From the NCBI GenBank assembly GCA_017608625.1, contig JAFCFN010000001.1, positions 19,828-83,827 on the forward strand: DNA of 64,000 nucleotides, in the 5' to 3' direction. The DNA is from Candidatus Woesearchaeota archaeon (GTDB lineage Archaea; Nanobdellota; Nanobdellia; Woesearchaeales; JAFCFN01). A model generated the notes under the pieces. The model ran no database searches, was not told the origin of the DNA, and was given only the letters and a program-made list of their open reading frames with translations. Made by a program: the position numbers and the translations under genes. Position 1 is the first letter of the stretch. Each line of letters begins with the position of its first letter. Shown here one piece after another: positions 5,672 to 53,377 of this stretch.

Positions 5672-5760
5672 AGGTCTACGAAATTCTTCGAAATCAAGGA
5701 TTTCGAAGACCTAAAAATTGCAAAGCAATTTTTAGATTCCTCGAATTTCGAAGAATTTTC
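5672..5760. repeat. Cluster of nested perfect inverted repeats in a convergent intergenic region (candidate bidirectional terminator or small RNA)
   Basis: cttcgaaatc (5686-95) pairs with gatttcgaag (5699-5708) across a 3-nt loop, and aggt/acct closes that stem. aaaaattgc-aaa-gcaattttt (5713-33) is a perfect hairpin. gaaattcttcgaaat also pairs with atttcgaagaattt at 5745-59. Confidence 0.5.
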
Positions 5761-12104: not shown

Positions 12105-12266
12105 TTATTTCTTTCTGATCGCTCTTAACGCTTTACTTTTACATCTTCTGCAAGAAACTTTACCTGCTAGAACTTTCATTGGATTAGCTCTTACCTTTGT
12201 TTTGCATTTTTTGCATACATAGATATTTCTAAACATCCTTGCTTCTGCTTCTTTGAATTTCGCCAT
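12105..12266 (-). CDS. rpl40e: Ribosomal protein L40e
   Basis: The 53-aa reverse translation is MAKFKEAEARMFRNIYVCKKCKTKVRANPMKVLAGKVSCRRCKSKALRAIRKK. It has the C4 zinc-ribbon pattern of L40e and an AGGAGG SD upstream. The gene is absent from the track because it is shorter than 60 aa. Confidence 0.7.
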   Translation of the reverse strand: MAKFKEAEARMFRNIYVCKKCKTKVRANPMKVLAGKVSCRRCKSKALRAIRKK

Positions 12267-12286
12267 TTAACCCTTTTCCTCCTTGC

Positions 12287-12338
12287 TAACGCTCGTCGCA
12301 AAAGCGTTAACGGAAAAAAATTTGCTCCGCAAATTTGC
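12287..12338. promoter_or_regulatory. GC-rich element in the aIF5A-to-L40e spacer: a hairpin plus a 10-bp perfect palindrome
   Basis: taacgct (12287-93) pairs with agcgtta (12303-09) across a 9-nt loop. The perfect palindrome GCAAATTTGC sits at 12329-38, and the direct repeat tttgctc occurs twice. The region is GC-rich in an AT-rich genome. Confidence 0.4.
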
Positions 12339-12355
12339 TCGCTTCGCTCGCATTT

Positions 12356-12754
12356 TTACTCGCCAGATTTAATCTGTTTCATAACTTTATCATTCAAGAT
12401 TATCCAATAGAGTACTTGACAACCTTCAACAACCTGACCTTCTAATTCTTCAGGGATCTTAAGATCAAATGTTTCATAAGTTTCTATATCCATCACATTA
12501 GCCATGTCGCCTTGTATTGACAATACAGTTGCTGTTTTCTTTTCTATTATGGGAGTTTCTATTCTATCATGACCTGGCATAACAATGACTCTTTTTTGAT
12601 TATCAATTAAACCAATTGCTTCTACTCTACATTTTGCGTGACCATGCTTACCTGGTCTAGAAGTTAATACATTTACAACTCTACAAGCAGCGCCATCTAT
12701 TACAACATAGTTACCAGGTTTTAAAGATGAAACTTGGACAAGTTTGACAGTCAT
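12356..12754 (-). CDS. eif5a: Translation initiation factor 5A (aIF-5A)
   Basis: The hypusine-loop signature SRPGKHGHAKCRVEA is present, and the length is about 132 aa. Confidence 0.85.
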   Translation of the reverse strand: MTVKLVQVSSLKPGNYVVIDGAACRVVNVLTSRPGKHGHAKCRVEAIGLIDNQKRVIVMPGHDRIETPIIEKKTATVLSIQGDMANVMDIETYETFDLKIPEELEGQVVEGCQVLYWIILNDKVMKQIKSGE

Positions 12755-14116: not shown

Positions 14117-14215
14117 ATTTCAATAAATGAAAAGGAACATTTATAAATCTTATTGAAGATAGAAAGGTTTAAAAATAAACCAATACCTTCTAAAATGAAG
14201 GGCATTACTATGATA

Positions 14216-14412
14216 AAAAGCTACCCAAGGTGCGGGATCCTTTCAAGGACGCATAGCTGTGGGGTAGCTTGGTCTAGCCCTTCTGGTTTGGGTAGTTAAA
14301 ACTAAAAATACCAGACAACCCCGGTTCAAAAACAGCGTGCAGTTGAAACAGCATGCTGTATAACAGCTAACAGAAAGCTGTTTTTGAAACTCCGGGCAGC
14401 CCCATATATTTA
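14216..14412. ncRNA. Candidate structured non-coding RNA; class and strand undetermined
   Basis: A GC-rich island of about 190 nt sits in an AT-rich intergenic gap between aRF1 and L37ae. gctaccc (14220-26) pairs with gggtagc (14262-68). ttcaaaaacagc (14325-36) pairs with gctgtttttgaa (14377-88) over 12 bp, and ccgg/ccgg extends that helix. tctggt pairs with accaga. Only a spurious 60-aa ORF covers it. Confidence 0.4.
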
Positions 14413-25396: not shown

Positions 25397-25589
25397 TAAT
25401 GGAACATTATGGAACAATTATGAGGTTTTTTCTTCCTTTAAAATTCAAAATAAGCAACTGTTTCATGAATAAAATATAAGTATTTACTAAGTTTATAAAC
25501 ATAATATGGCGATCAAACAAAAAGCCATGGAGGCAGCAGGAAAATCTTTGATTTTCCTTGGTCTCCAAAATACTTTTGGAGGTAATAAA

Positions 25590-26885
25590 ATGAAAAAATT
25601 GTTTAGTTTGTTTGTGGCTATGCTATTATTGCTAGGTATAGCCCCAGTAGCATTTAGCCAAGAAGAAAACATAACTAAAAATATGAATGAAACAAATACA
25701 ACAGTTACAGCAACTACTCTTATTGAAGTAAATGAGACAGAAGATGTAACTGGAGACGAAGTAGAAGATGCAGGAATAACTCCAGACCAACCATTGTTAT
25801 GGGGGATTGAAAGAGCTTTAGAGAGAATAAGATTGGCAATGACATTTGGAGCAGAGAAAAAAGCTGCATACGGATTAAAGATTGCAGAAGAAAGGTTACT
25901 AGAAGCTAGAGTAATGGCTAGAAAAAATAAATTCAAAGAAATGACCAAAGCTGAAGGAGAGTATGAAAAGATTGCAAAAAAAGTAAAAAGAAGGATCAAA
26001 GAAATAAGACACAAAGATCCAGAAAAAGAGTTGGAGCTGAAATTAAAACTTGGAAGTAAAATAGAAGCCAATGAAAAAAAGCTTGAAGATATTGAAACAG
26101 AGATTGAAGTTAAGATAAAAGGCAATTTGACAGACGAGCAAAGGGAATTAATAGATCAAATAATAGCCTCTTTTAAGAATCAAACAGAAGAGCTTGGAAT
26201 GGAGATAGAGGTAGCAGAAGGAAAAGCAAAAACAAAGATAAAAGCTAAAACAGAAAAAACAGATGAAGAGATCGAGAAATTAATTAAAGAGAAGAAAAAG
26301 CAATTAGGAATTACAAAAACAAGGTTAGAATGGGCAGAAAAAGCAATAGAGCATGCAGAAGAAAAAATTACAGAAGCTGAAAAGGAAATTAGTGAGAAGA
26401 ATGAAGAAGGAATTAATGTAAGCATTGTAGAAAGTTTTCTTGATAGAGCAAAGGAAGTACTAGAACAAGCAAAAAATGCTCTTGCTGAAGAAGAATATAG
26501 AGTAGCAAGAAAACTAGCTCACGAAGCACATAAGCTAGCTATGCATGCTAAAAGAGGTAAAAGCTTTGATGAAGAGGGTGTTGAGAAAGCAATAGAAAGA
26601 ATAGAAAAAATAACAGAAAAACTTGAGGAAAAAGAAGTAACCGGTATAAATGTTAGTAAAGTAACAGAAAAATTAGAAAAAGTAAAAGAGAGATTGGAAG
26701 AAAAACTAGAAAAAATCAAAGAAAAGCAGGAAGAGGATAAGGAAGAGGAAGAAGAAGTGGAATGCACTAGTGATGAAGACTGCGATGAAGATGAGAAATG
26801 TGTAGAAGGCGAGTGTGAGAAAGTAAAGGAAGATAAGGAAGTAGAAATAGAAGTTGAGGTAGAAAAAGGAGCAAAAGAAGATTAA
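25590..26885 (+). CDS. Secreted Glu/Lys-rich coiled-coil protein with a C-terminal Cys/acidic cluster
   Basis: The internal Met (MKKLFSLFVAMLLLLGIAPVAFSQE) gives a signal peptide and is preceded by a GGAGGT SD. The track ORF (25506) starts earlier. The C-terminus reads CTSDEDCDEDEKCVEGECEK. Confidence 0.45.
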   Translation: MKKLFSLFVAMLLLLGIAPVAFSQEENITKNMNETNTTVTATTLIEVNETEDVTGDEVEDAGITPDQPLLWGIERALERIRLAMTFGAEKKAAYGLKIAEERLLEARVMARKNKFKEMTKAEGEYEKIAKKVKRRIKEIRHKDPEKELELKLKLGSKIEANEKKLEDIETEIEVKIKGNLTDEQRELIDQIIASFKNQTEELGMEIEVAEGKAKTKIKAKTEKTDEEIEKLIKEKKKQLGITKTRLEWAEKAIEHAEEKITEAEKEISEKNEEGINVSIVESFLDRAKEVLEQAKNALAEEEYRVARKLAHEAHKLAMHAKRGKSFDEEGVEKAIERIEKITEKLEEKEVTGINVSKVTEKLEKVKERLEEKLEKIKEKQEEDKEEEEEVECTSDEDCDEDEKCVEGECEKVKEDKEVEIEVEVEKGAKED

Positions 26886-37612: not shown

Positions 37613-38108
37613 TTTTAAAATGTTTGATTAGATCACCAATTCCATAACCAATTATGGCTCCTGCGATGACGTCAGATGAGTAATGCTGATTTAAATAAAT
37701 TCTGCTTATGGCAATATAACATGCTATTATTATCCAAAAAATTTTAAATCTTTTCAAAAATATGATGGGAGTAAAGGATAAACCTGAGTGACCAGATGGA
37801 AAGGAGTGACTTAAATAATTTGGTCTTTCTCTTCCAATTAGAACTTTGAGCACAATTGTTATTAAAGAAGTTACAATTAAAGCCAGAAATAATTTTAAAC
37901 TAGGTTTTTTATTTTCAATAAAAAAAAGCGATTCTGTTATGATAGCTATAACAAAAAATACTGATAATACTGATTCTATTAAAACAGCAGGTTTGAATAA
38001 ATAATCTAAAACAGGACTTTTTATAATATTAAAAACATGCAAAACAAGCTTATCAAAAATAAACGAGGTGACTAATAAGATAACCCCTATCCAATAAAAT
38101 TTTTTCAT
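37602..38108 (-). CDS. PAP2-family lipid phosphatase
   Basis: The motifs KxxxxxxRP (GRERPNY), PSGH (FPSGHSGLSF) and SRxxxxxHxxxD (SRIYLNQHYSSDV) are present. Confidence 0.7.
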   Translation of the reverse strand: MKKFYWIGVILLVTSFIFDKLVLHVFNIIKSPVLDYLFKPAVLIESVLSVFFVIAIITESLFFIENKKPSLKLFLALIVTSLITIVLKVLIGRERPNYLSHSFPSGHSGLSFTPIIFLKRFKIFWIIIACYIAISRIYLNQHYSSDVIAGAIIGYGIGDLIKHFKNEK

Positions 38109-38572
38109 TATAACACCCAGCTTAAAGCTTGAGCTCCTGTTAAATACGCTGCTGTAACAATCAGACCTGCTATGACAACTCCTAGACTAATTGCAAGGAA
38201 TGATTTGAGTTTTTTCATTCCAAAAAACCAAGCTGCTAGCGTTCCTGTATACGCACCTGTGATAGGTAAGGGAATCGTAACAAATAATGTTAAGCCAATA
38301 TAGCCATATTTTTCTATTTTTTTCCGCACTTTTTTTCTCGTTCTTTCAAGAAATTTTTCAAATGTTCTTTTATAGATGGGAATAATCATAAAGATTCTGT
38401 GCAATGTTCCTAAAAAGATAAATACAAGAGGTATGACAAAAATATTTGCTATGACGCACACAAAATATGCTGTAACTGGATTTACTCCAGAAGCTAATGC
38501 TAATGGGATACCTCCTCTTAATTCTGCTATTGGCAATAATGAAAGAATTATTGCATTGATTATTGCTTCCAT
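38108..38572 (-). CDS. Small multi-TM membrane protein
   Basis: Four predicted TM segments are present, and no family is recognised. Confidence 0.4.
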   Translation of the reverse strand: MEAIINAIILSLLPIAELRGGIPLALASGVNPVTAYFVCVIANIFVIPLVFIFLGTLHRIFMIIPIYKRTFEKFLERTRKKVRKKIEKYGYIGLTLFVTIPLPITGAYTGTLAAWFFGMKKLKSFLAISLGVVIAGLIVTAAYLTGAQALSWVL

Positions 38573-38599
38573 CTTAACCGCAAAATCGGTTAACGCTTT

Positions 38600-38627
38600 G
38601 TCCTATCTTCGCTTTGCTCGATAGGTC
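38600..38627 (-). repeat. GC-rich stem-loop (gtcctatc...gataggtc) overlapping the cca stop codon; same motif family as 44885-44916
   Basis: The stem gtcctatc / gataggtc is 7 of 8 bp, with the loop ttcgctttgctc. A second hairpin, ttaaccg-caaaat-cggttaa, lies at 38574-38593. The region is GC-rich. Confidence 0.45.
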
Positions 38628-39958
38628 TCGCCTCGCTTACGCTCGGCAATTTTGCTAACCTTTGCTTTTATATACTTATCAGTTTTAATTAGATTTTTTA
38701 CAAGATTTTCTGGTTTGGTAAAAGTTCTCTTTGTTTTTGCCCATAATCTACCATTTCTTGTAAATGTTTTTTTATACTTTTTTTTGAAATTTGCTATAAA
38801 ATGTTTTGGAGCTGTTAAAGGAGGACCGATTATTTCTTTATATTTTGGTAGCTCTCTTTTGTTAGTTATTATCCAGAATAAAGCTTTTTTCTTTTTATCC
38901 CACTCCCAGCCATAATTAACTACCTTGAAATCATTTTGTTTTAATTTTTTAACAATCCATTTTAAGGCTTTTAATAACTTACTCCCAACAATATCTTCTT
39001 TACCACTTAAAGCTATTATATCAAGCAAAATTAATTTTCTATTCTTAGCTTTTTTTCTTAAATCTTCTATTGAAAATTTTTTTTCTTCAAAAAATTCCTT
39101 GCTCGGTCTTTTTAAAAATCTTTGACAAGTTTTTTTGAAGATATTGAATTTTTCCAAGGACAGAGCAGCTGTTATATTTCGTGTTTTTTGCACAGGATCT
39201 ATTATCACTAAAGGAGACTGTAGTTTTGATGGATTTAATTCATTGAGAGGATTTTTTCCTTTATAATACCTTTTTAAATCAATAACAACTTTTGGTTTCC
39301 ATTTGACTGCCTTTTTGACTAAGTTTATAAATGAGCCATAATAAATAATTAACACTTCACAAGCGTAGCCTGAAAAACCACTTATATAGCTTTCAGCTCC
39401 ATAGCAGTTCTGAGCTTTGCAGAATTTTTTTAATAATCTTATTTCATCACATAGCTTAGAATATTTTTTAACAAACAAGGCATGTAAAGGAGAAATATCA
39501 GTTATATTCATTGCTTGCGCTGGTTTTTTTATGTTTAAAATAGGAACTACTTCAAATGTAAAATTCTTTTCTTTTATTTGGAAATAATCCCTACTTCCAT
39601 GCAGTCTTGTTATCTTGAAATGTTTTTTTAATATTGGTTCTAAAATATCTGAAAGTTTATCTGATTTATCTTTATATTTTTTATAGTTAAATAAAACAAA
39701 GATGTCAGCATCTTTAACACCTTTCAGCCATGTATCTTTTGCTCCTGAGCCTCCTAGAATGGCCTTAGCGTCTTTAAGTGATTTATTTAGTTTGTTCAAA
39801 AAATTAGTTATCTTTTTTTTGAGCTCTTCTCTTTCTTTTTGAGTAGGTTTTATCTCCTTAAGAACCTCTTTTAGGATTTCCATGATGTTTATATAATTTG
39901 GGCAGTTTAAAAGGTTTTCTAAAGGTTCTGTAAAATTGTTATATTTATTTGTTGTCAA
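38603..39958 (-). CDS. cca: CCA-adding tRNA nucleotidyltransferase (archaeal class I)
   Basis: The N-terminus is EILKEVLKEIKPTQKEREELKK...AILGGSGAKDTWLKGVKDADIFVLF. The pattern G[SG]xxxGxxxxx[SD]D[IV]D of the class I nucleotidyltransferase fold is present. Confidence 0.75.
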   Translation of the reverse strand: MTTNKYNNFTEPLENLLNCPNYINIMEILKEVLKEIKPTQKEREELKKKITNFLNKLNKSLKDAKAILGGSGAKDTWLKGVKDADIFVLFNYKKYKDKSDKLSDILEPILKKHFKITRLHGSRDYFQIKEKNFTFEVVPILNIKKPAQAMNITDISPLHALFVKKYSKLCDEIRLLKKFCKAQNCYGAESYISGFSGYACEVLIIYYGSFINLVKKAVKWKPKVVIDLKRYYKGKNPLNELNPSKLQSPLVIIDPVQKTRNITAALSLEKFNIFKKTCQRFLKRPSKEFFEEKKFSIEDLRKKAKNRKLILLDIIALSGKEDIVGSKLLKALKWIVKKLKQNDFKVVNYGWEWDKKKKALFWIITNKRELPKYKEIIGPPLTAPKHFIANFKKKYKKTFTRNGRLWAKTKRTFTKPENLVKNLIKTDKYIKAKVSKIAERKRGETYRAKRR

Positions 39959-40012
39959 AGCAAAAACTTAATAAAGAAAATATTTATATTTTAATTAAAA
40001 AGAGGTGAAAAA

Positions 40013-41200
40013 TTGGTAGCAACACTGACAATTCTTACTTCATTAGCTGTTCTGCTTTTGGTAGGAGTGATTTGCTCTATTATTGCAACAAAACTTAAGA
40101 TACCTGATGTTCTTTTGTTGATCTTAGCAGGAATGGCTATTGGTCAGATAAAATATGAGGGTCTGCCTGCTGTTGAATTTCCACAATCTTTTCTAACAGC
40201 AATATCTATTTTAGCTCTGGTTATGATTGTTTTTCATTCTTCATCTAGGTTTAAATTTAGGGAAATGGATACTTTTTCTTTTAAAGCAATAAAACTTACA
40301 TTTATTTTTCTTTTTATGAATCTTATTTTTCTGACAATTGCTGTTTACAAAGTTTATGAGATTCCGGTTATTATAGGTTTAGCATTCTCTGCATTAATGG
40401 CAGGAACATCTCCTTCAACAACATTAACTATACTCAAAAAAGGCAAGAATAAAATCATTGAGCTACTGGAAATAGAGTCTTTGATTAATACTCCAATGAT
40501 TGTTCTTTTACCATTTGTTATTCTGGATATGCGGGGCATAGAGTTTAAGTTAATATTGACAAAATTTGTTGAGCAGATCTCTCCTTTTTTGCAGCAGATT
40601 GTTTCAGGTGTAGGAGCAGGCGTTGTATTAGGAATAATCGCTTTTGAGATTATGAGAAGAAAATATTCTGAAAAATATTCACCAATTGCTATTGTTGTTA
40701 TTGCTTTATTAACATATATCTTGGCTGAGAATTTAGGAGGAAATGGTGTTTTAGCTGTTGCTGTTCTTGGTTTGATATTTGGGAATTTTCATTTAAAAGA
40801 GAGAGCTGCTGTTAAGACATTTGAAACTGTTTTTACAGATTTTCTGCAAATACTTGTGTTTCTGCTAATTGGTTTGATGATTAAGATCCCTCTTACAAAG
40901 GACTTTTTATTATCTTCATTTTCCATATTTTTTATATTTATGTTAATAAGATGGTTTGCTGTTGTAATTTTTTCTGCAAAAGAGAAATACACTTTTAGGG
41001 AAAAGTTGTTTTTGACATTGCATGTACCAAAAGGAATTGCAACTGCAGTTGTAGCATTCTCGTTAATCTCATATACTCTAGTAGGAATAAAAGAGATTCT
41101 TGATTTGATACTAGCATTTATTCTTTATAGTGTTGTATTAGCTACAATAGCTACATATTTTAGGGGTTTCTTTTTAGGTAAAGAGGTTGTTGAAAAATGA
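40013..41200 (+). CDS. Monovalent cation:proton antiporter (CPA1/CPA2, NhaP/Kef-like)
   Basis: The protein has about 11 TM segments, with the N-terminus ...SIIATKLKIPDVLLLILAGMAIG. Confidence 0.65.
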   Translation: MVATLTILTSLAVLLLVGVICSIIATKLKIPDVLLLILAGMAIGQIKYEGLPAVEFPQSFLTAISILALVMIVFHSSSRFKFREMDTFSFKAIKLTFIFLFMNLIFLTIAVYKVYEIPVIIGLAFSALMAGTSPSTTLTILKKGKNKIIELLEIESLINTPMIVLLPFVILDMRGIEFKLILTKFVEQISPFLQQIVSGVGAGVVLGIIAFEIMRRKYSEKYSPIAIVVIALLTYILAENLGGNGVLAVAVLGLIFGNFHLKERAAVKTFETVFTDFLQILVFLLIGLMIKIPLTKDFLLSSFSIFFIFMLIRWFAVVIFSAKEKYTFREKLFLTLHVPKGIATAVVAFSLISYTLVGIKEILDLILAFILYSVVLATIATYFRGFFLGKEVVEK

Positions 41201-41964
41201 TAAGAGTAGGACCTTCAGGAATTGGGGGAGTAAAGGAAGCCATAGATGTATTAAAGCAATATAAAAAAGCAGGTCTTAGTGCAGCAGAGGTTGAGTTTAC
41301 TTATGGTGTTTATATAAAGAATAATGAAGATGCTAGAAAGATTGGAGAGGTAGCCAAAAAGCTAGGAATTATGTTAAGTATTCATGCGCCATATTACATA
41401 AATCTTGCTTCTAATGACAAGAAAAAAATAGAAGCAAGCAAAAAACGGATTCTTAGTTGTTGTGAGAAAGCTCATTACTTAAAAGCTAAATATGTTGTAT
41501 TTCATGCAGCATATTATGGAAAAAGAAATGCTGCTCAAACTTATGAAATGGTTAAAAAAGCAATTATTGATATGCAAAAAGTGATTAAAAAGAAAAGATG
41601 GAATGTTAAACTGGCTCCCGAAACAACTGGAAAAAGATCTCAGTTTGGCAACTTGGATGAGCTTTTAAAATTAGCAAAGGAAACTGGATGCAGTTTTTGT
41701 GTTGACTTTGCACATATGCTTGCAAGAGAAGGCAGGATAGATTATGATGAGATTTTCAGAAAAATTAAGAAATTTGAACACATACACTCTCATTTTTCTG
41801 GAATAGAATTTACAGATAAAGGAGAAAGAAGACATCTAATAACTCCTATAGCAAAGATAAAGGAATTACTTAAATATATAAAAAAATATAAGGTAGATAT
41901 AACTATAATAAATGAATCTCCTGATCCTGTTGGGGACAGTATTAAAACAACAAAGTTAATATGA
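41197..41964 (+). CDS. nfo: AP endonuclease family 2 (endonuclease IV-like TIM barrel)
   Basis: The motifs SIHAPYYINLAS and VVFHAA, the sequence KLAPETTGK..FGNLDEL, and the HSHF segment are present. Confidence 0.65.
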   Translation: MIRVGPSGIGGVKEAIDVLKQYKKAGLSAAEVEFTYGVYIKNNEDARKIGEVAKKLGIMLSIHAPYYINLASNDKKKIEASKKRILSCCEKAHYLKAKYVVFHAAYYGKRNAAQTYEMVKKAIIDMQKVIKKKRWNVKLAPETTGKRSQFGNLDELLKLAKETGCSFCVDFAHMLAREGRIDYDEIFRKIKKFEHIHSHFSGIEFTDKGERRHLITPIAKIKELLKYIKKYKVDITIINESPDPVGDSIKTTKLI

Positions 41965-42341
41965 AAAAAATAATATTAGATACAAATTTTGTTTTGATCC
42001 CTGCTCAATTTAATGTGGACATATTCTCTGAGATTGATAGAATATGCAATTTTGAGTATTCCTTGTGTGTTTTAGATAAAACATTTGATGAATTAAAAAA
42101 TATCATTGAGAAGCAAAGAGGAAAGCACAAACAAGCTGCTTTATTAGCTTTAAAGTTATTAAAAGCTAAGAAAGTAAAAGTGGTCAGGACAAAAGAAGAT
42201 AAGAGTGTTGATGAATTATTAATAGACTTGGCAAAAGATAAAGATGTTATAGTTGCTACACAAGACAGGTTGCTTAAGAAAAAGCTTAAAAAGCCTGTAA
42301 TAATGCTGAGACAGAGAAGATATTTAAAAATGTTTAGTTAA
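41961..42341 (+). CDS. PIN-domain protein
   Basis: An N-terminal ILDTNFVL (acidic Asp) and DVIVATQD are present. The gene lies upstream of rpoE', as in many archaea. Confidence 0.55.
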   Translation: MKKIILDTNFVLIPAQFNVDIFSEIDRICNFEYSLCVLDKTFDELKNIIEKQRGKHKQAALLALKLLKAKKVKVVRTKEDKSVDELLIDLAKDKDVIVATQDRLLKKKLKKPVIMLRQRRYLKMFS

Positions 42342-42413
42342 AAATATACCCTTTCTTAACTCAAAAACCGAAGCCTTTAAAAAGAGGAATTAACCACTTT
42401 TATAAGGGTTAAG

Positions 42414-42962
42414 ATGTTTTATAAAATAGAGCTAAAGGATCATATAAGAGTTCCTCCTAGTTTGTTTAGTCTGCCTGTGACAGAGGCAATAATGAAAAGA
42501 ATTAGAAAAAAGTATGAAAATTATGTTTCAAAAGAGATAGGTATAGTTATAGATGTTTTGGCTGTGAAAAATATTGGAGAGGGTATTGTTATTCCTGGTG
42601 ATGGAGCAAGTTATTATGATACAAATTTTGAATTACTGACTTTTAAGCCAGAGATACAAGAAGTACTTTATGGAGAGATTAAAGAGATTGCTGATTTTGG
42701 AGCTTTTATGACAATTGGACCAATAGATGGAATGATTCACATTAGCCAGACAATGGATGATTTTGTAAGTTTTAGCAAAGATAAAACATTGCAGGGTAAG
42801 GAGAGTAAAAAAACCTTAAGAGTGGGGGACAGATGCAGAGCAAGGTTAGTTGCTATCTCTTATAAAGATATAGCAAACCCTAAATTAGGTTTAACAATGA
42901 GACAGTCTGGTTTAGGTAGATTGGATTGGATAGAAGAAGAGATTAAAAAGGGTAAGAAATGA
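42414..42962 (+). CDS. rpoE: DNA-directed RNA polymerase subunit E' (Rpb7 homolog, S1 domain)
   Basis: MFYKIELKDHIRVPPSLFS is followed by an S1 domain, and the length is 182 aa. Confidence 0.85.
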   Translation: MFYKIELKDHIRVPPSLFSLPVTEAIMKRIRKKYENYVSKEIGIVIDVLAVKNIGEGIVIPGDGASYYDTNFELLTFKPEIQEVLYGEIKEIADFGAFMTIGPIDGMIHISQTMDDFVSFSKDKTLQGKESKKTLRVGDRCRARLVAISYKDIANPKLGLTMRQSGLGRLDWIEEEIKKGKK

Positions 42963-43141
42963 AAAAGGTATGCAAAAAGTGTAAGTTGTTTTATGAAGGA
43001 ACTACTTGTCCTATATGTAAAAGTAATGAGACAGCAACTGGATGGCAGGGAAGAATAAATGTTTTGGATGCAAACAAGTCAGAGATAGCTAAGAAAATAG
43101 GAATTAATGTTAAAGGAGAGTATGCTTTGAAGGTAAGATGA
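42959..43141 (+). CDS. spt4: Transcription elongation factor Spt4 / RNAP subunit E''
   Basis: A zinc ribbon (CKKCKLFYEGTTCPICKS) is present, the gene is 60 aa, and it sits immediately after rpoE'. Confidence 0.7.
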   Translation: MKKVCKKCKLFYEGTTCPICKSNETATGWQGRINVLDANKSEIAKKIGINVKGEYALKVR

Positions 43142-43488
43142 AAATATTAGAAAAAAAACCGAATCCGCTTCTTTCGAGAACTGAAATAAAGGCTGAGATA
43201 GAATATACAGGAGCAACTCCATCTAACAATGATGTTAAAAATGAATTAGCTAAACAGCTTTCAGCTGATGTTAATTTAGTTGTTGTTAAACAGATTCTTC
43301 CTATTTTTGGATTAAGAAAATCAACTGTCAATGCATATTTGTATGATAGTAAGGAAGCACTGATGAAGATAGAAAGAATAAAAGAGACAAAACCAAAAAC
43401 TGAAGAAAAGCCCAAAGAAGATGCAAAACCTGAAGAAGGTAGTACTGAAAAACCTAAAGAAGAAAAACCTGCTGAAGCAAAAGAGTAA
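43138..43488 (+). CDS. rps24e: Ribosomal protein S24e (with a Lys/Glu-rich C-terminal tail)
   Basis: The N-terminus is [29 protein letters not shown]. Confidence 0.8.
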
Positions 43489-43490
43489 AA

Positions 43491-43661
43491 ATGGCTAAAA
43501 AGAAGAAAAACCCAAAAAAACCGATGCAAATATGGAAAATATATGAACAAGGTAAGGCAAAGAATCCTGAGTGTCCTAAATGTGGTAAAGGAGTTTTTAT
43601 GGCTGTTCATAAAGACAGGAAAGTATGCGGCAAGTGCGGTTATACAGAATTTAACAAATAG
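43491..43661 (+). CDS. rps27ae: Ribosomal protein S27ae
   Basis: The hand translation is [54 protein letters not shown], a C4 zinc ribbon in the canonical S24e-S27ae order. The gene is absent from the track because it is shorter than 60 aa. Confidence 0.75.
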
Positions 43662-44549
43662 TTATTGCTCTAGTTTTTGAAGAACAAGCAGATCTTCTGT
43701 TGTGAGTTTTTCCTTTCTCCTGAGTTTTTCTTTAACAAGCTCTTCTTTTTTCTTAAGCTTTATTTCTTCTAAAATTTGTTTCTTATTTTTTATTTTCTTT
43801 TTCTGTTCATCTATCTTTTCCTTTGACTTACTTAATTCTAATAATGTTTGCTTTAATTCATTGTCTATTTTTTTGAATTGTTCCTTTATTTCTTTTATCT
43901 TTTTTGTTAACTGGCTCTTTTTTTCTTTTAGTTCTTTAACTCCACCAGAAAGAGAGATTATTTGCATATGCTTTTCCTGACTTATTTTTGCTTTTTCCTG
44001 AATGCTTTTATGAGTTGATTCTGCTTTATTTTTAAGTTCATCAATCTCTTTTGATAGAGTGTGTATTCTTTCTAGGACTGAATCCAGTTTTTCAAATTCC
44101 TTTTCTTTTTTCTTAAGATCTTTTAGTACTTTCATAAGCTGTTGTTCTTTCTCAAAGCTCATTACTTCTGTTTCTATCTTTTTCTCGAGAAGTTCTATCT
44201 GATTTTTTATTGAAGAAGGATCTCCTTTAATCTTATATCTTTTAGTTAGTTTATCTTTATCAGCCCTTGCTTTTTTAACATCTGCTATTTTATTTTTTAT
44301 TTCTTTGTTATAGTTATTTCTTTTCTTCTTAGCATCTTTTATTTCTGTGATTAATGTGTCTCTTTCTTTTTTTAATAATGCTATTTGATTTATTAAAGAA
44401 GAGATCTTTTTATCAATCTCTTCTTTTTCAGAGAAAAAAGCTTCTTTCTGATCAGCTATTTTGTTTAATTCAGATCTTAGCTTTAGTATTTTAGCCTTAT
44501 AACTATCTGATTCTCTAACTAGCTCTGATTTCTGTTCTTTTTCTGACAT
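43662..44549 (-). CDS. Lys/Glu-rich coiled-coil protein
   Basis: Long heptad-like K/E repeats are present. The start is set at the internal Met (MSEKEQ) to avoid overlapping rpl12. The function is unknown. Confidence 0.4.
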   Translation of the reverse strand: MSEKEQKSELVRESDSYKAKILKLRSELNKIADQKEAFFSEKEEIDKKISSLINQIALLKKERDTLITEIKDAKKKRNNYNKEIKNKIADVKKARADKDKLTKRYKIKGDPSSIKNQIELLEKKIETEVMSFEKEQQLMKVLKDLKKKEKEFEKLDSVLERIHTLSKEIDELKNKAESTHKSIQEKAKISQEKHMQIISLSGGVKELKEKKSQLTKKIKEIKEQFKKIDNELKQTLLELSKSKEKIDEQKKKIKNKKQILEEIKLKKKEELVKEKLRRKEKLTTEDLLVLQKLEQ

Positions 44550-44553
44550 AGGT

Positions 44554-44856
44554 TTATCCAAATAATGCTCCCAAACCTGCAGCTGCTTGTGCTTCCTCTT
44601 TCTTTTCTTCTTCAGGTGATTTCTCTTCTTTCTTTTCTTCAGGTTTTTCTGTTGCTGCTGGCGCTGCTGCAACTGGTGCTACAGCTGCTTTTTTAATAGC
44701 TTCGTCTATGTTAACACCTTCTAAAGCCGCTATTAGCGCTTTTATTCTGTTTTCGTCTGGCTTAACTCCAGCTGCTTCTAAAACTTTTTTAACTGTTGGC
44801 TCATCTATTTTGCCACCAGCTTTATGTATTAACATTGCTGCATAGATGTATTCCAT
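44554..44856 (-). CDS. rpl12: Ribosomal stalk protein P1 (L12e)
   Basis: The N-terminus is [31 protein letters not shown], followed by an Ala/Pro/Glu hinge and a conserved C-terminal GLGALFG. Confidence 0.8.
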
Positions 44857-44884
44857 TTTTTATACCTCCACAAACTGCAAACAG

Positions 44885-44916
44885 TTTGATCATTTGACCT
44901 ATCTGCGCTTTTGGCT
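44885..44916 (-). repeat. Perfect 9-bp-stem GC-rich hairpin in the P0-P1 intercistronic spacer (tgacctatc...gataggtca)
   Basis: tgacctatc (44885-93) pairs with gataggtca (44908-16) across the loop tgcgcttttggctt. Stem and loop are closely similar to the 38600-38627 element. Confidence 0.5.
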
Positions 44917-44951
44917 TGATAGGTCACTAATTTATTTTGCTTATAGCCCTT

Positions 44952-46022: not shown

Positions 46023-46705
46023 TCTATCCTCACTGGTTTACCCATTGTAAGTTTTAGTAGAACTGATTTTATGTTTTCTTTTTCTCGTGGTAAATGATGC
46101 AGTAAAGCATTATATATTGACAATATATTTTCTACAATATATTCATCTGGTGCGTCTTCTTTTCCAACAAGGCATTTAAAGGAATAGCTTGTTTTTAGTG
46201 AGACTTTAACTGTTTTTTGCAATTTTTCATATAATAGCTTAAGGTTAGCTGAAGGAGGAACAACGCATCCTGCTTTTGGATTAGGCATCTTTCCTCTTGG
46301 ACCCAATACTCTTCCAAGTGTTGCAGCCACTTTTGGCATTACATTTGCCTGAGCAATAAAAAAATCAAATTCTCTTGCTAATTTTTTTGCTATCTTTTTA
46401 TCTGTATATTTTGGTAGTTCATCTGCTAAAATTGTTTTATCACATATTTGTTCTGCCTGTGATTTTAGTTCAGGACCTACAATAGCACAAATCTTTTTCT
46501 TTTTTCCTATGTCAAAAGGCAATTGTGTGAAGAATTCTATTTGATTAGTAGGTTTTTTAAGGTCTAATCCTTTTACATTTATTATTAGGTCATAGCTCTG
46601 TTTAAAATTCCTTTTAGGACCTTCCTTAACCTTTTTCAGAACTTCCAATACTTTTTCTTTATTCATGGTTTCATTCCTCCTACCAGGGTCCTCAGATTTT
46701 TTCAA
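46019..46705 (-). CDS. rpl1: Ribosomal protein L1
   Basis: The gene is 228 aa. The sequence FDLIINVKGLDLKKP...VMPKVAATLGRVLGPRGKMPNPKAG matches the L1 signature. Confidence 0.85.
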   Translation of the reverse strand: MKKSEDPGRRNETMNKEKVLEVLKKVKEGPKRNFKQSYDLIINVKGLDLKKPTNQIEFFTQLPFDIGKKKKICAIVGPELKSQAEQICDKTILADELPKYTDKKIAKKLAREFDFFIAQANVMPKVAATLGRVLGPRGKMPNPKAGCVVPPSANLKLLYEKLQKTVKVSLKTSYSFKCLVGKEDAPDEYIVENILSIYNALLHHLPREKENIKSVLLKLTMGKPVRIE

Positions 46706-46790
46706 GGTAGTGCAAGCGGAATCGCTTTTCTAACCATACCTTTCTTATAGAATACTGGAGAAATTAGATGTTTATAAAGGTTTTGGATTT

Positions 46791-53149: not shown

Positions 53150-53219
53150 AGAAAGCTTTAAATAGTGAGGGGTATTTAAAGGTTTTGTTGGTGGAGCTAC
53201 TTGGGGAGGTGATGAGTAC

Positions 53220-53261
53220 TTCGGTGCTTTACACCGAATGAAGATTTTTCGGAATCTTCAT
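53220..53261 (-). promoter_or_regulatory. Two adjacent perfect hairpins in the leader/upstream region of the TRASH-protein gene
   Basis: ttcggtg-cttta-caccgaa is a 7-bp stem, and atgaagatt-tttcgg-aatcttcat is a 9-bp stem. caccgaa recurs at 53276-82. Confidence 0.4.
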
Positions 53262-53321
53262 ATCCCAAGCTTTGACACCGAAAAGAATTCTAATCTTTTA
53301 GAAAAAACAAAAAGAAATAAA

Positions 53322-53377
53322 AGCTCCCTATTGTTTTAAGTGGGGGTGGTTAGTTAGAAGGAGGGCAATAGGGAGCT
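53322..53377 (-). terminator. Strong stem-loop (12-bp perfect stem) followed by a T-rich tract, abutting the stop of 53377..53781
   Basis: agctccctattg (53322-33) pairs with caatagggagct (53366-77). On the minus-strand RNA the hairpin is followed by UUUUAUUUCUUUUUGUUUUUU. Confidence 0.5.

Follow-up and report, generated by a model that had tools for sequence, protein, structure and literature searches.

In a 64-kb stretch of the genome of a Candidatus Woesearchaeota archaeon (contig JAFCFN010000001.1, positions 19,828 to 83,827; hereafter the window), three junctions between co-directional genes carry insertions of about 75 nt that are specific to this lineage, at sites where the genes of relatives are separated by short spacers or overlap. 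The insertions, which we call cassettes A (between the genes for ribosomal proteins P0 and P1), B (between cca and a gene of the Sm_multidrug_ex family) and C (between the aIF5A gene and an open reading frame (ORF) resembling L40e), represent net gains of about 78, 73 and 79 nt, respectively, and stand apart in composition; they are built from hairpin modules, partly common to the loci. We favor, with roughly even confidence, the reading that they form a mosaic family, low in copy number, of small palindromic insertion modules. The genomes of DPANN archaea are tiny and densely packed, with genes that overlap, and their non-coding DNA is very poorly understood. A first-pass annotation, made from the letters alone, had pointed to recurring stem-loops at these sites; its observation is partly confirmed and its interpretation partly supported, and Pfam confirms the identity of the genes it named (cca, P0, P1, L1 and aIF5A).

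Loci A and B are connected by a hairpin of about 30 nt, here called H2. Copy A, which can be written as TGACCTATC-N14-GATAGGTCA, does lie within the 95-nt spacer between P0 and P1, although about 10 nt from where it was first placed (44885-44916), while copy B was correctly reported as overlapping the end of cca, with the stop codon (TAG, 38603-38605) falling in its 3' arm. A local alignment of the two sense strands contains 28/31 identities over 33 columns with one 2-nt gap, and its score of 40 was not reached by any of 500 shuffles (13.8 ± 2.2; z-score about 12), bearing out the earlier statement that both stem and loop are nearly identical. The consensus of H2 is GACCUAUC-RAGC-(N0-2)-AAAGCG-MA-GAUAGGWC, in which the loop is kept as well as the stem. 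Copy B has a 6-bp stem (CCTATC/GATAGG) followed by an outer G-C pair beyond one mismatch, and the GA/GAA internal loop is missing from copy A. Folding energies are -13.6 kcal/mol for copy A (z = -6.35) and -8.9 kcal/mol for copy B (z = -4.6), and these two, together with a third copy in another archaeon (L035, described below), adopt the same two-tier hairpin with z-scores from -4.6 to -6.4. The pattern CCTATC-N8-20-GATAGG returned 2 matches in the window compared with 0 in 100 shuffles. H2 is thus genuinely repeated, with two copies here and one in the other archaeon.

Exact protein matches place the window on JGI metagenome contig Ga0366835_1000549 (127.6 kb), at about 44693-108692 when coordinates are mapped from the matched ranges, and its P0 relatives point to a Woesearchaeota (DPANN) archaeon. 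For comparison with relatives, loci were ranked by full-length identity of P0 (75% for L016, 71% for L017 and 61% for L018, the last being syntenic with the window over 21 kb), and a further relative, L039, was retrieved via cca (76% identity); when the N-terminal 285 aa of P0 are compared, L018 falls outside the other four (the window, L016, L017 and L039). L016 has a P0-P1 spacer of 17 nt; in most Woesearchaeota the spacer is 1-26 nt long, most other archaeal loci likewise staying at 26 nt or less, and in L002 and L013 it reaches 59-73 nt without a comparable hairpin. H2 is absent from the P0-P1 spacers of all 17 relatives with a locatable P1, among them L001-L010, L012, L013, L016-L018 and L039. 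A different hairpin, GGAGGCA..CAAATTAAAATTTG..TGGTCTCCAAA..TTTGGAGG, occupies the junction in L017 and L018. The spacer of the window contains a second hairpin, which matches by position the CCAAAC..GTTTGG segment of L017 and L018 and ends 1 nt before the Shine-Dalgarno (SD) sequence of P1 (GGAGG, followed by N8-ATG). When the spacers of L017 and L018 are aligned to it with MAFFT, the 32-nt H2 falls inside the apical AAAA loop of their inner hairpin, which suggests that H2 was nested into an older P0-P1 hairpin. The P0-P1 junction is an insertion hot spot.

Two further observations concern this junction. Exactly between P0 and P1, L039 has a 361-aa ORF (L039:2272-3357) with LAGLIDADG_3 (34 bits) and Cro/ArsR-type helix-turn-helix domains, which looks like a free-standing homing-endonuclease-like gene in the stalk operon. 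In addition, the hairpin of L017 and L018 defines a second family, of the form GGAGGCA-(variable inner hairpin)-TGGTCTCCAAA-N3-4-TTTGGAGG, with members at 25529-25583 (+) of the window, L017:4630-4685 and L018:11167-11221. In L017 and L018 this element is located at the SD sequence of P1, and in the window it lies in the 5' leader of a gene for a DUF5667 secreted protein (true ATG at 25590). Compared with the leader in L039, the element in the window is a 49-nt insertion flanked by TGGAGG direct repeats, and the SD sequence is therefore duplicated; the element also has an anti-SD (UCUCC), predicted to be able to pair with either SD copy.

At locus B, MAFFT alignment gives a clean 73-nt gap opposite the cassette in both L018 and L039, and where the cassette sits, these relatives have a 13-nt overlap of cca with the next gene. 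The cassette codes for the final 14 residues of the cca product (AERKRGETYRAKRR) and for its stop codon. This tail is absent from all 119 listed homologues, which cover at most 97% of the query and for the most part are 410-420 aa in length. Since the tailed protein is present on five contigs, the cassette is not an assembly artefact; the population itself is clonal (0 mismatches over 11 kb between samples). Of the three hairpins in the cassette, B-H1 has a GNRA tetraloop on a stem that is interrupted by a tandem G.A internal loop, H2 copy B follows, and B-H3, which had been noticed in the first pass and indeed exists at 38574-38593, ends 1 nt 5' of the ATG (38572) with which the next gene begins.

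Locus C shares modules with locus B. C-H1' has the same tandem-G.A architecture as B-H1, and C-H3', immediately 5' of the L40e SD sequence, contains the 11-mer AAAGCGTTAAC, which has 2 matches in the window (0.03 expected), in B and C only and on opposite strands. Both sense strands carry CGTTAAC(C)G.TTTTGCG. The pattern GAGC-N3-5-GCGAR has 3 matches compared with 0.17 expected, all on the minus strand, two in B and one in C, with both B-H1 and C-H1' among the matching hairpins, and GAGCG(T)AAGCGAG occurs in B and C only in ~350 kb of related DNA. The earlier suggestion that a ttaacgc core links the two loci holds to this extent: the hairpin at 12287-12309 exists, and short words such as AAAGCGTTAAC and GAGC-N3-5-GCGAR are shared, but the literal palindrome ttaacgc..gcgttaa has 0 matches. 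A supposed further member in the L1 leader has to be dropped, considering that the CGCTTTT at 46723 is one of 10 occurrences compared with 5.4 expected, and is attributable to chance. The three 3' hairpins (A, B-H3 and C-H3') occupy equal relative positions and differ from one another by paired changes in both arms, which for as few as three sequences is no more than suggestive.

The cassettes also stand out by composition. The window has 31% G+C and is strongly depleted in CpG (401 observed and ~1497 expected, an observed/expected ratio (O/E) of 0.27), and its ordinary intergenic spacers have 12-30% G+C and are unstructured. Within the 64 kb, a density of at least 5 CpG per 60 nt is reached solely in B (38579-38645, 9 CpG) and in C, where the wider cluster (12261-12362, 11 CpG) is the strongest of the window. 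CpG depletion is common to the Woesearchaeota clade (O/E 0.24-0.38 in the window, L015, L016, L018 and L039), with the L035 archaeon at ~1. The relatives L016 (1974-2025), L017 (1776-1881) and L039 (18668-18787) each have a CpG-rich, hairpin-rich intergenic element of their own; those of L016 and L017 share CTGCRTCATASTGTCG...CTTGCAG, and AGCGAAGCGA-type words are common to them and cassette C. The shared words are in antisense orientation, in L017 antisense to the flanking genes, and we did not merge these elements with the family. The elements of L016, L017 and L039 may be further families of the same phenomenon.

The third copy of H2 came from a scan of 241 million metagenome records with the pattern GACCTATC-N3-8-AAAGCG-N1-4-GATAGG. 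The scanned collection excludes the source metagenome, and the scan is therefore no guide to copy number in the source genome. It yielded 18 loci, with ~20 estimated by chance, and most were unrelated coding sequences or terminators. The copy in L035 is identical to copy B at all positions left free by the search pattern. It is intergenic, 39 nt 3' of the point at which an alpha/beta-hydrolase gene stops, and a further CpG-rich hairpin (ACGCGGA-GGTT-TCCGCGT) comes after it. Proteins of this contig, NCBI HZX20653-HZX20660, are annotated as those of an 'archaeon' metagenome-assembled genome, and its 39% G+C and CpG O/E of 0.99 make it clearly a different genome.

Table 1. Positions of cassettes, hairpins and neighbouring genes, in window coordinates unless a locus is named.
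Feature	Position	Strand	Description
P0-P1 intercistronic spacer (locus A)	44857..44951	-	95 nt; ~78 nt longer than that of the nearest relative
H2 copy A	44895..44926	-	sense UGACCUAUC-AAGCCAAAAGCGCA-GAUAGGUCA; 9-bp stem plus inner GC/GC pair
Second hairpin of P0-P1 spacer	44871..44888	-	CAAACUG-UUUG-CAGUUUG
Cassette B	38576..38648	-	73-nt insertion; three consecutive hairpins; 9 CpG
B-H1	38628..38649	-	UUGCC-GA-GC-GUAA-GC-GA-GGCGA; minimum free energy structure
H2 copy B	38600..38627	-	GACCUAUC-GAGCAAAGCGAA-GAUAGGAC
B-H3	38574..38593	-	UUAACCG-AUUUUG-CGGUUAA
Cassette C	12267..12355	-	89-nt aIF5A-L40e spacer; 10 nt in L002
C-H1'	12337..12351	-	GC-GA-GC-GAA-GC-GA-GC; read from sequence
C middle hairpin	12314..12336	-	AAAUUUGC-GGA-GCAAAUUU, into U7 tract; read from sequence
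C-H3'	12285..12311	-	GUUAACGCU-UUUGCGACG-AGCGUUAGC; contains AAAGCGTTAAC
H2 copy L035	L035:1913-1940	sense to upstream gene	reads GACCTATCGAGCACAAAGCGAAGATAGGACA
L1 5' leader structure	46667-46725	-	two helices; 12 Woesearchaeota loci
53-aa ORF	12105-12266	-	weakly L40e-like; NCBIfam E = 1.2e-5, below curated cut-off
aIF5A	12356-12754	-	Pfam
Sm_multidrug_ex gene	38108-38572	-	Pfam
cca	38603-39958	-	Pfam
P1	44554-44856	-	Pfam
P0	44952-46022	-	Pfam
L1	46019-46705	-	Pfam

Among the options first put forward for these hairpins, a miniature repeat family fits best, because all three loci are lineage-specific insertions and because the ~30-nt hairpin recurs in a different archaeon, but it is far smaller than the word 'dispersed' suggested. 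Under the insertion-module reading, modules of ~20-32 nt each would have been assembled into mosaic cassettes of ~75 nt, with H2 as one module and the tandem-G.A hairpin and the GTTAAC hairpin, common to B and C, as two others. The modules may be copied by a hairpin-dependent mechanism and may accumulate through nesting and merging. The cassettes would be transcribed within operon mRNAs, uncoupling cistrons that formerly overlapped, and stable stem-loops would land 18-38 nt ahead of the next start codon, where they could block exonucleases or modulate re-initiation. The next start codon is 38 nt away in A, 27 nt in B and 18-20 nt in C, which does not agree with the 30-50 nt reported at first.

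The closest functional parallels are the GC clusters of yeast mitochondria, which offer the nearest working analogy, and the palindromic elements of the Rickettsia and REP types. Such elements reach new sites by copying, nest and merge, and are tolerated because they are inserted between genes or remodel only a dispensable protein terminus. REP/BIME and pneumococcal BOX elements are imperfect palindromes of 20-40 nt, intergenic or intercistronic, modular and mosaic, which form part of operon transcripts and can have a stabilising effect on mRNA segments upstream. REPs differ from the cassettes in that they occur in hundreds of copies, with a GTAG head and a RAYT gene, none of which was found here; H2 has 2 copies in 83 kb, and its host is archaeal. 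Rickettsia palindromic elements (RPEs), likewise repeats of palindromic form, have a reduced, AT-rich genome as their host, enter it in or beside genes and can become coding, as cassette B does in supplying 14 codons of cca and its stop. RPEs differ in being about 100-150 nt long, in having many copies per genome and in usually lying in frame inside genes, and they have no sequence similarity to the cassettes (RPEs are mentioned in PMC1166351 and PMC10969869). The GC clusters of yeast and other fungal mitochondria (e.g. GC42; PMC4478555) are GC-rich palindromes of ~30-45 nt, sporadic in an AT-rich compact genome, which proliferate, pass between species and merge into new clusters without an encoded transposase. 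The cassettes resemble them as GC-rich palindromes in an AT-rich genome that are present or absent between close relatives, and in species sharing and mosaic merging. GC clusters differ in being organellar, with tens to hundreds of copies and a mobility proven at the population level, whereas the cassettes reside in a DPANN host, have only 2-3 copies, and their mobility is deduced from empty sites in relatives. Prokaryotic MITEs, the miniature inverted-repeat transposable elements, are likewise small, non-autonomous intergenic insertions that fold into hairpins, but they carry terminal inverted repeats and target-site duplications and are usually >100 nt long (PMC10969869); neither terminal inverted repeats nor target-site duplications are demonstrable at A, B or C, and we class the cassettes as neither MITEs nor REPs.

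Several results weigh against a family of mobile modules. The ends of A, B and C have no terminal inverted repeats, the inverted repeats present being internal hairpins only, and flank-versus-flank alignments were not significant, shuffles doing at least as well in 340/1000 (A), 610/1000 (B) and 69/1000 (C) cases, a comparison that 5-6-nt duplications could escape. Copy number is low, with 2 H2 copies and 3 cassettes in the 83 kb examined from the own genome (the window plus 19 kb of flanking contig, on both sides), and the 19 kb of flanking contig holds no extra H2 copy or CpG cluster of the B/C type. Only L035 was homologous among the 18 metagenome loci, that is, one copy in 241 million records. 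With a covariance model based on the three copies of H2, no further copy came up in 351 kb of Woesearchaeota loci, among them the relatives whose P0-P1 spacers were compared; the H2 pattern had 0 matches in a viral collection, and a chimeric six-frame peptide of cassette B, used for copies absorbed into ORFs, matched none of 5.8 billion proteins. Pfam searches of the 64-kb window and its two extensions turned up neither a transposase or integrase gene nor a RAYT-like one. Finally, the orientation of H2, which in all three copies is sense and 3' of a gene, and the RNA-type features of B-H1 and C-H1' (tandem G.A and a loop that is GNRA or GAA) are compatible, too, with selection for an RNA function.

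This last point leads to the main rival, in which H2, and perhaps H1 and H3 too, would act in cis as selected RNA hairpins of operon mRNAs that are read by a specific protein, for example an endoribonuclease or an RNA-binding regulator, and that process or stabilise intercistronic segments or tune downstream translation, with copying only as their origin. We consider it clearly less probable than insertion modules as such, yet it keeps real weight because of the shared orientation of H2, the preserved loop, the near-identity across two differing genomes (31% versus 39% G+C, CpG O/E 0.27 versus 0.99) and the RNA-specific features of H1. The tandem G.A plus GNRA module is stable on the sense strand only, and both cassettes fold better in sense than in antisense (z -3.6 versus -1.75 for B and -2.1 versus -1.2 for C). 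Cassettes A and C, moreover, end just 5' of the next SD sequence, and B adjoins a start codon. A selected role would nevertheless have to be reconciled with the orthologous junctions of all relatives examined, which show no conservation, and with neighbouring genes that are functionally unrelated (P0/P1, cca/exporter and the hydrolase). There is also no covariation among the H2 copies, the stems being nearly identical, the GA/GAA internal loop is lost in copy A, and matches to Rfam families number zero.

The position of the hairpins, 0-40 nt 3' of stop codons, also raises the idea that they are transcription terminators or attenuators of the upstream genes. Archaeal termination depends on oligo-T tracts. 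The 8-bp middle hairpin of locus C, which runs into a U7 tract, is the sole terminator-like feature among the three loci (its complement appears when the plus strand is folded), and perfect hairpins stand at other gene ends in the window, e.g. at 5685-5735 and 1364-1381. After H2, however, the T runs in A, B and L035 are T3-T4 at most, short of the at least 5 T that we used as a threshold. If transcription stopped between P0 and P1, or between cca and a gene that in relatives overlaps it, the downstream cistron would be cut off, with no clear promoter following; termination also leaves the loop-sequence identity between copies unexplained. The terminator idea fits locus C only, and as an account of the three loci it is improbable.

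Copy A lies inside the L1-P0-P1 operon, and the first-pass annotation had considered that the hairpins might be autoregulatory sites of the L1/L10 type, at which a ribosomal protein binds an mRNA mimic of its rRNA target. The AAAGCG(U)AA words may bear a loose resemblance to the 23S GTPase-centre hairpin (L10/L11 site). With no orthologous conservation in the P0-P1 spacers of the relatives listed above, this reading is largely refuted and we regard it as the most improbable of all. The other copies stand beside cca and a hydrolase gene, and the loci scanned at E<=10 gave no rRNA family match. Instead, the conserved, covarying structure of this operon lies in the L1 leader and is unrelated in sequence to H2 and different from it as a hairpin. 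In 12 Woesearchaeota loci it comprises a UUCC/GGAA helix overlapping the SD sequence and a CUAC/GUAG helix, arranged around an asymmetric loop. Pairing is found in 86.8% of cells, compared with 32-62% when the partners are slid, and 5/9 pairs have changed on both sides, a level reached by 4/500 shuffles. This structure, which has no Rfam match, is probably an L1 autoregulatory site, and presumably the type of site to be expected for feedback control by L1.

The inverted repeat of H2 (GACCTATC/GATAGGTC), perfect in A and conserved across genomes, could alternatively be a double-stranded DNA palindrome serving a dimeric regulator or recombinase as operator or recombination site. Such a role is very improbable considering that the spacing of the half-sites varies (12, 14 and 14 nt in the three copies), that the sequence between them is itself conserved, that the copies are located inside operons or at gene 3' ends instead of at promoters, and that all three have one orientation relative to the neighbouring genes. 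A more far-reaching proposal, which we put forward as a speculative one, less probable than the cis-acting hairpins above, is that H2 is a new trans-lineage DPANN hairpin signal in RNA or single-stranded DNA, defined by its 8-bp stem, GA/GAA internal loop and GC-capped A-rich loop. The protein reading it would be conserved and would belong to the host or to a mobile element, and H2 would serve it either as a site of mRNA processing or as a substrate of transposase-free hairpin copying. If this were true, H2 and the SD-duplicating element at 25529-25583 would be actively rewiring translational coupling in compact DPANN operons.

Established RNA and repeat classes were also considered. At the gathering threshold and at permissive E-values, Rfam returned for the three loci only sub-threshold matches to GA-cis (RF02987). 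B-H1 resembles the stem-GA-GC-GNRA-GC-GA-stem hairpin of that family, but membership was rejected: the scores are 11.8 and 13.8 bits compared with a gathering threshold of 34.7, and the remainder of the model does not fit. A kink-turn or K-loop was discarded for H2, where the 6-8-bp Watson-Crick stem would not survive in the K-turn register, and for H1, whose tandem G.A pairs are symmetric with no bulge when the register is read by hand. A CRISPR repeat is excluded, as all copies are single and each metagenome locus has exactly one match. Neither strand of A, B or C has a box C (RUGAUGA), and no snoRNA family matched above noise, so that a box C/D small RNA was rejected. H/ACA, tRNA-like and group II domain V readings were ruled out on sequence.

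Other structured intergenic elements were seen in the window and in related loci. In the whole window there are zero tRNA genes, zero rRNA genes and zero Rfam families at the gathering threshold. Between the genes for eRF1 and L37ae, at about 14200-14405 (+), lies a GC-rich, strongly structured non-coding region of ~200 nt (z about -5 to -6) with a TATA-like AAAGGTTTAAAAATA ahead of it. This region is probably a non-coding RNA gene, with no Rfam match even at E<=5 and no call by ARAGORN. The unannotated intergenic region at 53150-53376 (227 nt) is structured on both strands (z about -7), with hairpins such as TTCGGTG-CTTTA-CACCGAA and ATGAAGATT-TTTCGG-AATCTTCAT. Two adjacent perfect 11-bp hairpins with 3-nt loops, TCTTCGAAATC-AAG-GATTTCGAAGA and CTAAAAATTGC-AAA-GCAATTTTTAG, stand at 5685-5735 between convergent genes, and the local CpGs are all in TTCGAA repeats. 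The perfect GC-rich hairpin at 1364-1381 (GAGGCCC-TTTT-GGGCCTC) sits in a 384-nt region without an ORF of at least 50 aa. Hairpin tops of the type GAAATC-NNN-GATTTC, noted along with the pair at 5685-5735, recur at 25538 of the window and at about 18700 of L039. Beyond the end of the window, a CpG-containing sequence at about 12900-13000 of L038 resembles an intron-containing or atypical tRNA (GGGGACGTAGTATAACTAGG...GGGTTCGAAAT...), for which ARAGORN made no call.

As the evidence stands, the cassettes are a modest, low-copy phenomenon. They indicate that palindromic modules can still enter genomes as compact as these, where they split overlapping cistrons, rewrite the C-terminus of a protein and put stem-loops before start codons, which bears on the evolution of operon structure and of translational coupling in reduced genomes. 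For annotation they call for caution, since the C-terminal tail of the cca product derives from an insertion. If the modules are recognised by a specific protein, they would give a way to approach RNA processing or the mobility of DNA in archaea that have not been cultured.

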